A DNA stretch of 32,129 nucleotides, taken from positions 1 to 32,129 of IMG/VR virus record IMGVR_UViG_3300044878_000133, one strand, 5' to 3'. The stretch is from a virus. Taxonomy: Duplodnaviria; Caudoviricetes. Shown in pieces: positions 9,183 to 23,361 of this stretch (the stretch's first letter is position 1; each line of letters opens with the position of its first letter). The notes beneath the pieces were generated by a model that had not been told where the DNA came from, did no database searches, and saw only the letters and a program-made list of their open reading frames with translations. Both the position numbers and the translations under genes were made by a program.

Positions 9183-10502
9183 CTATGCGGCGAGTTCCAT
9201 GCCGTCGATGAGTGCGACGCCGTTGCGGATGCGGTAGACGGCGGGCCATGATTCGGTGTCGTTGTAGTAGGCGAGCCCGAACCCTTGCTGCCAGTTCTCC
9301 ACGACGCGGGCCGCTGTACCGTCAGCACCGATGGCGCCGTTGACGGATGGGACAGCACCGTCTACACGGCAGAGGCAGCCGGGGTTGGCCGAGTAGGACT
9401 CGATGGGCTCACCGCGGGGGCCGATGACGCTGTGGTAGGTGATCTCCACCCGGTGCGTGTGCCCTGCCCATGTGTTGAGGTGCGGGACCTGGTGGACGTA
9501 TTGGGCGGTGGTGCTGCCCTTGCTGTTGGCCTTGGTGCCGTGGATGTTGCGGGTGGTGTCGTTGTCCCAGTCGGTCGCTGCCGGGTAGGCGTCAACATAC
9601 TGGATGTTCAGCTCGTCCAGCCGGAGCAGGTAGGGCAGCGACATGGTCGGCCATGACTCGGGCATGTTCGCCCGCTTCAGTCCGAACGCGGCGAGGGCGT
9701 TGGCTTCGATGAAGTTCTGCATCCGCTTGTCGTGGTTGCCTTCGATGACGACTATCTCAGCATCCGGGCACATGGCGCGCAGTGTGGCGAGGAACTTATG
9801 TCCGGCGTCAAGTGCTTCCTGCGTCGTGTTGGCGAACGCTGCTTCCTGAGCAAACCGGCCCTGTGAGGCGAGGTCCAGGAAGTCACCGAGGATCTGGATC
9901 TTGTCCGGCTGCATCTTGAACGCGGCCCGGGTGAAGACGTCCATCGCCTTAGCGTCGTGGAACGGGTCAAGGGAGCCGTCAGCGAGGCGGCGGAACCCTA
10001 TCTGCGTGTCAGCACCCTTGAGGGCGAGCTTCATGCCGCGGACGGGCTTAGCCGGCTGGTCGGCGATGTTCACCTGTACCGGGGCTGCCTGTTGGATGAC
10101 GGGCCACTCGGGGCCCTGTTCAGGGTTGTCCCCCAAACCAGCAATAGGCTTGACGTTATTTAGCTTATTCCAGAAGCCGCCCGAGGGGTTGCTGGTCACT
10201 CCCCACGTAAACGTGACCGCGTCCGGGTCCTGTCCCTTGGACGCGATGAAACGGCGGAAGTCCTCGAACCCCCATGCGCGGTCACTCATGGTGACGTAGT
10301 CGGCTGTACCGTCGGGGCGGTGGCTCTCGGAGCTCACCGGGGCCGGCGCTTCGACGTCGCACACGCATTCCCCGCGGCGGTGGTTTCCGATCTGGGAGCG
10401 GCTGACCTGGTAGCCGAGGTCTTCGGCGTGCTGCCGCTCGGCCGCGGACATGTCCACATTGGGGAACCCGGCGACTACCTGTGCATATTTGCAGACCGCC
10501 AC
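9183..10502 (-). CDS. Calcineurin-like metallophosphoesterase with N-terminal extension
   Basis: DTQIG, GDFLD, GNHD, HG, GHTH motifs in canonical order; GTG start with GGAAGGGG RBS. Confidence 0.85.
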   Translation of the reverse strand: MAVCKYAQVVAGFPNVDMSAAERQHAEDLGYQVSRSQIGNHRRGECVCDVEAPAPVSSESHRPDGTADYVTMSDRAWGFEDFRRFIASKGQDPDAVTFTWGVTSNPSGGFWNKLNNVKPIAGLGDNPEQGPEWPVIQQAAPVQVNIADQPAKPVRGMKLALKGADTQIGFRRLADGSLDPFHDAKAMDVFTRAAFKMQPDKIQILGDFLDLASQGRFAQEAAFANTTQEALDAGHKFLATLRAMCPDAEIVVIEGNHDKRMQNFIEANALAAFGLKRANMPESWPTMSLPYLLRLDELNIQYVDAYPAATDWDNDTTRNIHGTKANSKGSTTAQYVHQVPHLNTWAGHTHRVEITYHSVIGPRGEPIESYSANPGCLCRVDGAVPSVNGAIGADGTAARVVENWQQGFGLAYYNDTESWPAVYRIRNGVALIDGMELAA

Positions 10503-10587
10503 GGTTGCCCCTTCCAATAGGTTGGCCTACTCGCTAGCCCGCTGTGTACGTCAGTGCGTTACTTGATCGGGGATGCTTTCGTGCCAG

Positions 10588-10658: not shown

Positions 10659-10668
10659 ATTTGCCATT

Positions 10669-10889
10669 TGCCGCACGTCTGCGACTCTCAGGGATGGCTC
10701 TCCTGCCCCGACCAGCTTGAGCCCTTGCGGGGCATCAAAGGCTGCGGGGACGTCCTGTATGCCAGACCGGGGGAGTTCTGCAGTCTCCCCCGGCCCGACG
10801 GAGCCAACCTCTTACCCAGGGTTGGCGCTGGGGAACGATGAAGGCCTCGCCGTATGTGGGTCAGCGAGGCCTTCAAGTCTTGTGCGGCA
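10669..10889 (-). ncRNA. Putative ~220 nt multi-hairpin structured RNA
   Basis: 8-bp closing stem (10669-10676/10882-10889) enclosing five hairpins, including 12-bp and 9-bp perfect stems and a GCAA tetraloop on the - strand. Confidence 0.6.
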
Positions 10890-10952
10890 GGGTTCTTAGC
10901 CACTACACGCAGTTTGTTCATTACCTACGTTACAGGTGTTGTGCAGAGTTGT

Positions 10953-11240
10953 CTAGTGTTCCCGCGTGTTAGTTTCGGCGTGTCGCGGTGCATCTGCGGG
11001 CGATGCCTGGATTAGCGCGAGCCCCTTGGCGGTCACTTCATAGTCGCCTCGGCATCCGCAGTTGCAACCGGTCAGATAGCCCTTATTGATGAGCTTCCCC
11101 ATCTTGGCGCGGAACAGCCTGTCGGGCAGTTCGGAATATGGTGGCTCAAGGTTCCAATAGCAGACCCACATGCCAATCTCTGCCTGCTTGTCAGCAATGA
11201 AGCGCACTAACGGTATGTCAGGGATGTCCTTGCATTTCAC
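10953..11240 (-). CDS. Hypothetical protein with GCNCGCRGD motif (possible winged helix)
   Basis: 95 aa; start overlaps upstream stop; LINKGYL...YEVT.KG resembles a wHTH wing. Confidence 0.7.
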   Translation of the reverse strand: MKCKDIPDIPLVRFIADKQAEIGMWVCYWNLEPPYSELPDRLFRAKMGKLINKGYLTGCNCGCRGDYEVTAKGLALIQASPADAPRHAETNTREH

Positions 11241-12022
11241 GCTGCCATCCTTTCACGTCGTTCTGCCAGTGCTGTTCTTGAGCGGTCCCAGAGGTTGCGG
11301 ACCTTGCGGACCTGGTACACGGGCTTGTCGCCCCGGTAACCGATGGGGGTGAGTTTCTTCCGGTTCACCCATTGCCGGATGGTCCCTTGGGGGAGTGCTT
11401 CGCGGGTGACGGGGTCGGAGAGCATCCGGGAGATTTCGGAGGCGGTGCCGGTGTGGTACCCGGCGGCGGCCAGTGCCCGCGTCCGCCATTCGGTGAGGTC
11501 CCAGGTTGTCCCGCAAGTCTGGCAGCGGGCGTCCGCCTTGCCCTCCGGCGTGTAGACCGGCGTGGCGCACTCCTGGCCCTGCTCGACGGTGGGGCAGATC
11601 CCGGCGAACACCTTGGGCGCCCCCCGATCCATCGCCGACAGGCAATCGTTCAGCGCCCCGCGTAGTTCGTCGGCCAGCACCGGTGCCCAGTCCATCCCGC
11701 GTACCTCACGGATCTGTGCGAGCAACACGCGGGCGGCTTTGGTGGCGTGGGGTTGCCGGTTGCCGAGGGCCTGGGTCCAGCCGGTGAGGATGACGTTCAG
11801 GGTGCGGCCGGCGTCGTAAGCGCGGGAGTTGGTCGGTTCCATGGGGGCGGAGTGCCCGGAGGACCCGACACTCCCGGCGCCGACGTCCATCCGGGCCGCG
11901 GACGCCCAGAGGGCCTCCACCATGGATTCGACCTCGCGCAGGTCGTCCATGAGTTTGTCCCTGCACCCCGGGCAAAGGTAAATACCCTGGGTTGTTGGCT
12001 GATCGCATCCCCCGCATGTCAT
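11237..12022 (-). CDS. Zn-finger/HTH DNA-binding protein (candidate late-gene regulator)
   Basis: CxxC/CxxC N-terminus, C-x7-C...CxxC, C-terminal HTH (TIRQWVNRKKL); apparently leaderless, with TATCCT 6 nt before ATG. Confidence 0.75.
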   Translation of the reverse strand: MTCGGCDQPTTQGIYLCPGCRDKLMDDLREVESMVEALWASAARMDVGAGSVGSSGHSAPMEPTNSRAYDAGRTLNVILTGWTQALGNRQPHATKAARVLLAQIREVRGMDWAPVLADELRGALNDCLSAMDRGAPKVFAGICPTVEQGQECATPVYTPEGKADARCQTCGTTWDLTEWRTRALAAAGYHTGTASEISRMLSDPVTREALPQGTIRQWVNRKKLTPIGYRGDKPVYQVRKVRNLWDRSRTALAERRERMAA

Positions 12023-22552: not shown

Positions 22553-22929
22553 GCCGACACTTCCCAGCGGGTGGTGATCGAACCGAGGATCATGCTGATC
22601 TCCCAGTACAGGGTGATGAGGAGGGAGCCGCGGAGGTGGTCGGTGTTGTCCACGGTGCCGGCGTCGTTGACCCGGAGGCCCGGGTGGGTGGCGTTCTCGA
22701 TGGTGCGGAGTTCCCGGGCGTAGGAGACGAGCAGGTCAACGTCGGTCCAGCGGAGGTCTTTGTCGGTGATCCAGGCGAGCCGGCGGGTGAGGGTCTGCAG
22801 CTCGGCTTCGGACGGGCCGTGAATGCTGCACTCGGCGGCGAAGTGCCGGATTTCGGCGAAGGTGATGCGGGCGGCGAGGTCCTTGTCGAACAGGTACGGC
22901 GTCCGGGTAGACTCTAGATAAGTCGTCAC
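22549..22929 (-). CDS. Hypothetical protein
   Basis: 126 aa, first gene after the promoter at 23005-23033. Confidence 0.65.
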   Translation of the reverse strand: MTTYLESTRTPYLFDKDLAARITFAEIRHFAAECSIHGPSEAELQTLTRRLAWITDKDLRWTDVDLLVSYARELRTIENATHPGLRVNDAGTVDNTDHLRGSLLITLYWEISMILGSITTRWEVSA

Positions 22930-23004
22930 TGTGGTTCCAATCGCTAGTGATGGTTTCCGAGGCCCGGGAGTTCGCGCTTCCGGGCCTCTTTTGCTGATGT
23001 ACCC

Positions 23005-23033
23005 AACTTACGGGATGTTCCCTAAAGTTACAA
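23005..23033 (-). promoter_or_regulatory. Putative sigma-A promoter with operator-like motif in spacer
   Basis: TTGTAA-N17-TAAGTT; overlaps TGTTCCCTAAAGTTAC (23016-23031). Confidence 0.7.
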
Positions 23034-23034
23034 G

Positions 23035-23361
23035 TCAGCGTGTCGGCGTGTCGTCGGAACTCTCAGGAACAAGCTCCCAGACCCCGATGGGTCGGCGTTC
23101 GATGGTGTAGTCCAGGTCCCCGTAAACACGGTCGGCGTGGGTGGCGGCCCCGTCCGCGGTGTGGAACCCGCACGAGAGCGTCACATCCCCCCGCTTCGCC
23201 GCATACTCCCACCCCGCCTGAGCAACCCAGCCCGACCGGATCACCGCCTCCACCGCCGCCGCAGCCTGCAACGCCAGCAAATGATCCGGAGACCCCGCCG
23301 CCGCCTCAGACGCATCAATCGCCGCAGCCACCGCAACGGTCAGTTCCTCCCGGGCGGTCAT
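23035..23361 (-). CDS. Hypothetical protein (108 aa)
   Basis: Start MTAREEL, ATGA overlap. Confidence 0.65.
   Translation of the reverse strand: MTAREELTVAVAAAIDASEAAAGSPDHLLALQAAAAVEAVIRSGWVAQAGWEYAAKRGDVTLSCGFHTADGAATHADRVYGDLDYTIERRPIGVWELVPESSDDTPTR

Follow-up and report, generated by a model that had tools for sequence, protein, structure and literature searches.

The stretch between positions 10669 and 10889 of the window (the whole 32,129-nt stretch of DNA that was analysed) very probably holds, on its minus strand, several RNA modules that are strung together but inherited separately, within a predicted late-transcript leader. One of them, designated module A, is highly likely to pair intermolecularly, loop to loop, as a predicted HIV-DIS-like homodimer. 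The original prediction of an uncatalogued, selected minus-strand RNA structure associated with a tRNA that heads the late operon is thereby supported, its release by RNase P is probable, and covariation among homologues was found for module A as well as for a second module, C (94% and 98% of cells paired, respectively, a level reached by 0 of 500 shuffles). We regard the modules as genuine RNA families that are new, although their niche, that of the structured RNAs of phage tRNA regions, is already known. No description of them was found in the literature searched, in which coverage of subscription papers is thin. In the table of Fremin et al. 2023 the 20 Micrococcaceae rows are all Rothia-linked and almost wholly human-associated (PMC10690425); the modules may be among the candidates of that study that carry no host label.

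Genomic context and organization of the late leader

The window contains integrase, repressor and replication genes followed by minus-strand terminase, portal, head and tail genes, indicating a temperate phage whose virus record is 81% complete. The tRNA-Trp is 93-96% identical to the tRNA-Trp of Arthrobacter phages Richie and Isolde, and all 36 of the 36 GenBank records matching a related cassette are Arthrobacter phages. Both observations point to Arthrobacter or a close relative as the probable host. PHROG matches identified terL, portal and major head genes downstream of the metallophosphoesterase, and the gene that follows the metallophosphoesterase is, from its position, likely the small terminase subunit. 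The following features were assigned:

10927..10955, minus strand: predicted late promoter, -35 TAGACA (10955-10950), 17-nt spacer, -10 TAACGT (10932-10927)
10878..10921, minus strand: leader segment L, promoter-proximal, conserved in relatives, folding locally in the stretch from transcript start to tRNA
10839..10875, minus strand: module H1, C-rich-loop hairpin of 11-13 bp, 8 aligned copies
10803..10832, minus strand: module A pseudoknot, S1 10832-10828/10819-10815 with a 1-nt loop, S2 10826-10820/10809-10803 with a 5-nt loop
10761..10799, minus strand: module A hairpin P3, 15 bp with conserved G-U pairs, CUGCAG at 10783-10778 as predicted intermolecular kissing loop
10706..10751, minus strand: variable hairpin P0, 5' of module C
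10663..10705, minus strand: module C pseudoknot, P1 10705-10702/10692-10689, knot GCCAU 10698-10694 with AUGGC 10667-10663
10685-10680/10675-10670, minus strand: module C P2, with a GACG tetraloop
10587..10658, minus strand: tRNA-Trp(CCA), found by ARAGORN, Rfam 59 bits, predicted RNase P / RNase Z punctuation
10523..10586, minus strand: module D, directly 3' of the tRNA, conserved stem with GAAA and AGUA strands, outside the finding
9183..10517, minus strand: metallophosphoesterase, first late gene, PHROG 20266, E 3e-135

In six of eight leaders aligned by eye the promoter spacing was the same with changed letters, the other two leaders being cut short at their 5' end. A scan for consensus promoters and terminators found nothing, and the predicted late promoter lies below its threshold. 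Transcription would start near 10921. An AAGUG-type motif was observed just past the predicted late start in the window (10900-10915, minus strand) and in leaders L136, L142, L144, L146 and L210. It is often followed by an intrinsic terminator and could be a late activator or antiterminator site, perhaps of the zinc-ribbon protein encoded at 11237-12022.

The eight copies of hairpin H1 aligned by eye differ in the letters of the stem, with pairing kept and the loop remaining C-rich. The possible pairing of the H1 loop with the downstream ribosome-binding site, also read by eye, comprises 3 bp here and 5-6 bp in certain relatives, and is absent from L043. H1 was rejected as a terminator: a separate U-tailed terminator precedes it in L091, L072 and L093, and H1 is probably not the terminator itself. 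The hairpin P0 has a variable interior and abuts P1 in the relatives aligned by eye; it is near-identical in L071 and L091.

Folding strength and coding potential

The dense pairing claimed for positions 10669-10889 was borne out, every listed inverted repeat being present. The minus strand of this stretch folds at -120.5 kcal/mol (z -6.31), and none of 200 shuffles was as stable; the plus strand gave a z of -3.46. In a coarser scan with 20 shuffles each, the stretch had a z of -4.8, and one of the 37 other 221-nt tiles of the window reached a z as low as this. The strand asymmetry of folding, together with the conserved G-U pairs described below, points to RNA and not to DNA as the selected molecule. 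An Rfam scan matched the tRNA only, in agreement with the original statement that no Rfam family was recognised.

The claim that the region holds no credible ORF stands in part. A leaderless 77-codon ORF does cross it (10921-10688, minus strand), and this ORF has no PHROG match and is not conserved: the sequences of relatives show an early stop in L043 and lack the ATG in L017 and L068.

Modules assort independently among relatives

Relatives, labelled here with L-numbers, were collected through the neighbouring metallophosphoesterase (60 loci) and by pattern scans. Same-contig duplicates as well as L020 and L037, whose module is identical to that of L002, were left out of the counts, as were the pattern matches without the fold (1/15, 1/9, 42/61 and 12/24 in the individual scans, and L096 in a further one). 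A metagenome scan gave 23 stretches, eight of them genuine. None of seven stretches from a genome-collection scan matched the covariance model of module A (R1), a result that says little about prophages since the pattern fixed CUGCAG. A blastn search of GenBank phages with the window's own stretch returned chance matches only, and the cultured relatives were reached via the related cassette L065.

Some relatives share only the 5' half of the stretch and others only its last 45 nt. The order found here is promoter, leader L, H1, A (10834-10752), variable hairpin, C (10705-10663), tRNA and D. Only 9 of the 46 assessable copies of module A have a C-rich hairpin of the H1 type as their neighbour; three of the 48 copies of A have module C at a distance of 400 nt or less, and module A occurs twice in L074. 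As the modules assort independently among relatives, they do not make up one closed RNA, and the large closed ncRNA of the original prediction gives way to a chain of modules that occur separately.

Structure and distribution of module A

The covariation of module A was assessed on 18 hand-picked distinct copies, in which 94.2% of 497 cells were paired and changes on both sides affected 16 of the 28 pairs, whereas slid controls reached 35-48% paired. The 5-bp stem S1 was 91% paired with one of its five pairs changed on both sides. Its central pair was A-U in nine copies, C-G in five, G-C in three and U-G in one, and in the distant copies L019/L217 and L215 the whole of S1 is replaced with pairing kept. 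The stem S2 was 94% paired (six of seven pairs changed on both sides) and the hairpin P3 95% paired (8 of 15). One G-U pair of P3 was present in all 18 copies, which points to selection on RNA.

With duplicates removed, model R1 recovered 48 copies of module A. By blastn, module A matched 24 distinct cultured Arthrobacter phages, nine of which were examined with R1 and confirmed (Faja, RadFad, Auxilium, AbbyDaisy, Hestia, MargaretKali, Seahorse, Richie and Isolde). The module was missing from two of the five proviruses searched whole (92% and 85% complete). It stands alone right 3' of the terL stop codon in L239 and L240 and 3' of the stop codon of a holin-like gene in L229, L215 and L019 (gene identities by eye), and directly 5' of a ribosome-binding site in several cultured phages. 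Besides its place here, it occurs in phages whose genome end carries HNH genes. 'Hypothetical proteins' are annotated over module A in a number of phages (BillyTP 93, Auxilium 91, Zucker 96, Anekin 92, Isolde 94, BenchScraper 92 and Kukla 84); since the open frames differ between copies, these are probably not genes.

The apical hexamer of module A is palindromic in seven spellings

The tip of P3 carried a palindromic hexamer in all 27 distinct hairpins (48 copies), for which the mean chance expectation was 0.12 per hairpin. Among these hairpins, GUGCAC occurred 12 times, CUGCAG nine times, GGAUCC twice and CGUACG, CGGCCG, CCCGGG and GCGCGC once each, so that sampling of the seven spellings is uneven, five of them resting on one or two hairpins each, and kin among the hairpins are non-independent. 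The loop of the window is CUGCAG and that of the cultured phages GUGCAC.

Because CUGCAG and GUGCAC alone could represent a tetraloop closed by an outer pair, IMG/VR was scanned with a loop-free pattern. The scan yielded 61 stretches, 19 of which matched the model at E below 1e-4. The tip hexamer was palindromic in 19 of these 19 matches, compared with three of the 42 non-matches. The five further spellings were found although model R1 had been built solely from CUGCAG and GUGCAC copies. Across the spellings the central dinucleotide takes all four self-complementary forms (GC, AU, UA and CG), AU or UA being central in 3 of 27 hairpins. This switching argues for intermolecular pairing, since adjacent bases cannot pair within one strand. 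The same argument was used to validate intermolecular bridges in OLE and GOLLD, where palindrome switching was described for OLE L9.3 and GOLLD L21a (Kretsch et al., 10.1101/2024.12.08.627333). The computed hexamer duplexes range from -6.4 to -11.5 kcal/mol. The HIV-1 hexamer has flanking purines and central G-C pairs; in the window the hexamer is flanked by A on both sides, and in most GUGCAC copies the 3' neighbour is C.

The palindrome might instead be a by-product, either of a tetraloop closed by an outer pair or of inverted repeats perfected by template switching, with no RNA-RNA pairing involved. The two common spellings would fit such an origin, as only their outer pair covaries, around an invariant UGCA. 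Against it, the inner and central positions switch in the five further spellings, the unpaired flanks that separate the hexamer from the stem persist in asymmetric form, and the G-U pairs are conserved on one strand only. We consider a by-product very unlikely.

Structure of module C

The knot and P2 of module C were paired in 98.4% of 187 cells over 17 copies, a set selected in part with a pattern biased towards pairing and in which GACG was fixed, and 6 of 11 pairs changed on both sides; slid controls were 21-35% paired. The changes on both sides concern five of the six P2 pairs and only one of the five knot pairs. The pairing of P1 was judged by eye and with a simple count. At E<2e-6, model R2 matched the window as well as 25 of the 99 other sources, among which are identical copies and repeats of the same contig. 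In the loop-free scan for module C, the P2 loop was GACG in 11 of 12 genuine matches and CCCA, which is not self-complementary, in one. The GACG loop is a plausible second self-contact, for which the case is weaker than for module A. A divergent module C match (L181:91-140, minus strand, E 1.7e-6) was noted about 550 nt downstream of a module A of the GGAUCC type.

Two known pseudoknots were set aside as counterparts of module C. HDV-like/theta ribozymes form a nested double pseudoknot in which P3 and L3 lie between P2 and P4; the corresponding interval of module C measures only about 9-18 nt, most of it the 3' strand of P1, and module C gave no Rfam match. The topology of the preQ1-II riboswitch is similar to that of module C, and this riboswitch has a fixed place over the ribosome-binding site. 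There was again no Rfam match, and module C is followed within 90 nt on its 3' side by a T-loop motif in 11 of 23 loci.

The closing stem and the proposed kissing pair are not conserved

The original prediction enclosed the whole stretch in an 8-bp closing stem. In the excised stretch 10669-10889 seven of its eight pairs had a probability of about 1.0 and the outer pair 0.54, and with the tRNA included, but misfolded, the stem still reached about 0.87. When the sequence was folded from the predicted start (10921) to the 5' end of the tRNA, the probability fell to 0.07, compared with about 0.9 for the local hairpin 10685-10680/10675-10670. The closing stem was 1.7 kcal/mol worse than this P2 hairpin, with the pseudoknot left uncounted, and the local hairpin covaries. 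Both arms have conserved local partners, the 5' arm lying within segment L, and of the 23 module C loci only 2, the window being one, have a perfect equivalent of the stem. We read the closing stem as a probable coincidence of this module combination, though it may form in this genome.

The kiss proposed between ACCCA and UGGGU is likewise not upheld. Its bases belong to the module A pseudoknot, where UGGG, as the 3' strand, pairs with CCCAG (10832-10828), and the scarcity of C-rich hairpins beside module A deprives it of a regular partner. The conserved candidate for kissing is the palindromic CUGCAG loop at 10778-10783, which had not been flagged. The GCAA loop described on the stem at 10706-10749 is absent as a conserved feature in relatives, and the structure does not end 10 nt before the tRNA: conserved structure runs to 10663, 4 nt before it.

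A single closed RNA of 221 nt with several hairpins and a kissing loop between H1 and H2, newly assembled from modules in this phage, would account for the perfect 8-bp stem, which is also part of the lowest-energy fold of the excised stretch. The loss of the stem in the start-to-tRNA fold, the conserved local partners of its arms, its presence in two of 23 loci and the independent assortment of the modules make this reading most improbable.

tRNA elements, processing and possible function

A T-loop motif was found within 400 nt of 39 of the 48 copies of module A, compared with 3 of 75 background stretches, and ARAGORN predicted a tRNA near 21 of the 48. Many neighbours are, by eye, tRNA look-alikes in which the acceptor stem and T-arm are kept and the other arms lost or altered. 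Look-alikes with the D and anticodon arms lost or replaced were noted in the tRNA-Trp slot of L017:2883-2925, L050:5140-5190, L007:2560-2615, L068, L069, L073 and L010 (positions approximate), and the same cassette of cultured phages contains elements labelled 'tRNA-Undet' or 'tRNA-OTHER'. RNase P is specific for the 5' ends of tRNAs, and the tRNAs and look-alikes likely serve as RNase P cut sites. Nine of the 48 copies lack a T-loop motif nearby, several of them standing alone between late genes, so that release by tRNA processing cannot be general. Public RNA data, taken as contigs from eight of 19 runs, contained over module C only low-depth pieces of relatives (X4, X5 and X1; depth 2.6-4.9) and no piece over module A, the remainder being unrelated tRNA-Trp.

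Taken together, the explanation that we judge probable is that of RNA modules in a late leader, with module A pairing two copies loop to loop. A late promoter would start an abundant transcript near 10921, and RNase P would cut at the 5' end of the tRNA (10658), freeing a leader RNA of about 260 nt. Such release as a discrete RNA seems fairly probable. The CUGCAG loops of two molecules would then kiss over 6 bp, perhaps relaxing into an extended duplex, and a second, weaker self-contact may come from the GACG loop of module C, giving dimers or chains. The stable product, along with the co-transcribed tRNAs and look-alikes, might act late in infection as a decoy or scaffold for RNA-binding or RNA-cleaving factors of the host. 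This purpose, an abundant nuclease-resistant accessory RNA, is a tentative guess.

In the main alternative, the modules would be cis-acting parts of the late mRNA. The pseudoknots might shield 5' ends from an exonuclease, RNase J, and a dimer formed on the mRNA by module A, as a kiss or an extended duplex, might cluster late messages or create a concentration-dependent RNase III site. The solo copies 3' of terL or of a holin-like gene, and those placed 5' of a ribosome-binding site in cultured phages, agree with a role on the message. By computation, an extended duplex gains 14-17 kcal/mol in stability over two monomer hairpins, a weak argument since such a duplex is favoured for any hairpin. 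Cis-action is at odds with the predominance of tRNA or tRNA-like neighbours (39 of 48 copies), with the differing downstream genes and with the accessory nature of the module, and we consider it unlikely. A packaging RNA that rings the portal like phi29 pRNA is extremely improbable. The position ahead of the terminase genes and the principle of intermolecular loop pairing recall pRNA, but palindromic loops favour closed dimers and not head-to-tail rings. Module A moreover changes site, is shared with phages that have HNH genes at their genome end and is absent from two of five proviruses, so that an essential role in packaging is itself unlikely.

A wider proposal extends the favoured late-leader explanation. 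The DIS-like hexamer and GACG would provide a retrovirus-style dimer linkage in late RNA, yielding RNA-only dimers, chains or condensates, with the palindrome as a self-recognition code and the cassette as an exchanged toolkit. We hold this proposal to be doubtful. If it were true, only RNAs of phages with the same spelling would co-assemble, and the tRNA-punctuated cassette would be a mix-and-match set of RNA parts for counter-defence or scaffolding, swapped like accessory genes.

Comparison with known RNAs

Like module A, HIV-1 DIS/SL1 is a hairpin with a GC-rich palindromic apical hexamer whose letters vary with self-complementarity kept, and GUGCAC and GCGCGC are themselves HIV-1 DIS palindromes (PMC7357161, PMC5874298). 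Unlike DIS, module A comes from dsDNA phages that package no RNA genome, is fused to a 5' pseudoknot, tolerates a central AU or UA and mostly lacks the 3' flanking purine in the GUGCAC class. By prediction, module A would work like DIS without being homologous to it. The GACG of module C P2 corresponds to the kissing tetraloop of MoMuLV; in SL-C and SL-D of MoMuLV/MoMuSV it likewise sits on a stable stem (PMC7357161, PMC5874298), whereas module C has one GACG hairpin inside a pseudoknot instead of a tandem pair, and CCCA in one relative.

GOLLD and ROOL, which are found in phages and often near tRNAs, and OLE are structured RNAs that form homo-oligomers partly through kissing loops (10.1101/2024.12.08.627333). 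The module chain occupies a niche like that of GOLLD and ROOL, being phage-encoded with a tRNA-Trp 4 nt downstream. GOLLD, ROOL and OLE are single large RNAs, however, many GOLLD exceeding 800 nt, whereas the units described here measure 40-90 nt, are shuffled and can stand alone. Membership in these families was rejected: no family model matched the window or 14 related loci, and the stretch is not kept as one unit. T4 RNAC and RNAD, likened here by description and not by sequence, are also small RNAs from a phage tRNA region, but they are fixed genes of a lytic coliphage (PMC3014915) and not an exchangeable toolkit. UG27 arrays are variable sets of structured units in prophages, with gain and loss of units; all units there have a single fold and work for a linked reverse transcriptase (10.64898/2026.09.22.753630), in contrast to the many folds seen here. 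No reverse transcriptase match was obtained among the 47 ORFs scanned (of a record that is 81% complete), and with units this heterogeneous a UG27 ncRNA array was ruled out.

The phi29 pRNA is a phage RNA with intermolecular loop pairing, which uses two different complementary loops as part of the motor (PMC7357161), unlike the palindromic loop of an accessory module. It was rejected as a counterpart because the H1 loop and UGGG are not a conserved pair and module A is absent from two of five proviruses. Actinobacterial 6C RNA has a C-rich hairpin loop, as does module H1 (PMC6486639). H1 is a single hairpin, where 6C RNA has two that are C-rich; it has a shorter C run and gave no Rfam match at E up to 10, and 6C RNA was likewise discarded.

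Natural RNA homodimers are rare, and those of the palindromic-hexamer kind are reported mainly from retroviruses, a fly mRNA and the bridges of giant ornate RNAs (PMC7357161; Kretsch et al.). Module A would add a phage module of 80 nt whose comparative signature, kept through seven spellings, is that of such a dimer, and it belongs to dsDNA phages packaging no RNA. With 24 matches in cultured phages, the role of structured RNAs in phage tRNA regions becomes testable by a six-base change, and the loops would form a natural set of orthogonal kissing motifs.

Further modules and structured stretches

At least ten different module types were distinguished by eye across the cassettes. The GAAA and AGUA strands of module D form what we take to be a loop-E-like motif. 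By eye, module D was seen 3' of the tRNA or a tRNA-like element in L002, L017, L043, L063, L065, L068, L069, L071, L073, L074 and L076, and also in L093, L209 and L210, its closing stem varying with compensation. Module B, a multi-stem unit that often has a C-rich loop of its own, lies right 3' of the late terminator in L136:2270-2365 (Richie) and occurs in L138, L139, L065, L071, L074, L076 and L120 (all positions approximate). Another module of about 90 nt, directly 3' of a stop codon, has a long closing stem and conserved GGUGAA and GCUGCC strands (L003, L004, L005, L007, L014, L015, L045, L086, L087, L092 and L094). Within the window, a second strongly folding stretch (22889-23109, minus strand; z -4.9 with 20 shuffles) spans the gap between two early ORFs. 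Finally, in L015 one hairpin loop about 20-30 nt 5' of the first tRNA-Trp is reverse-complemented relative to its close relative L044, as expected from a template-switch inversion.
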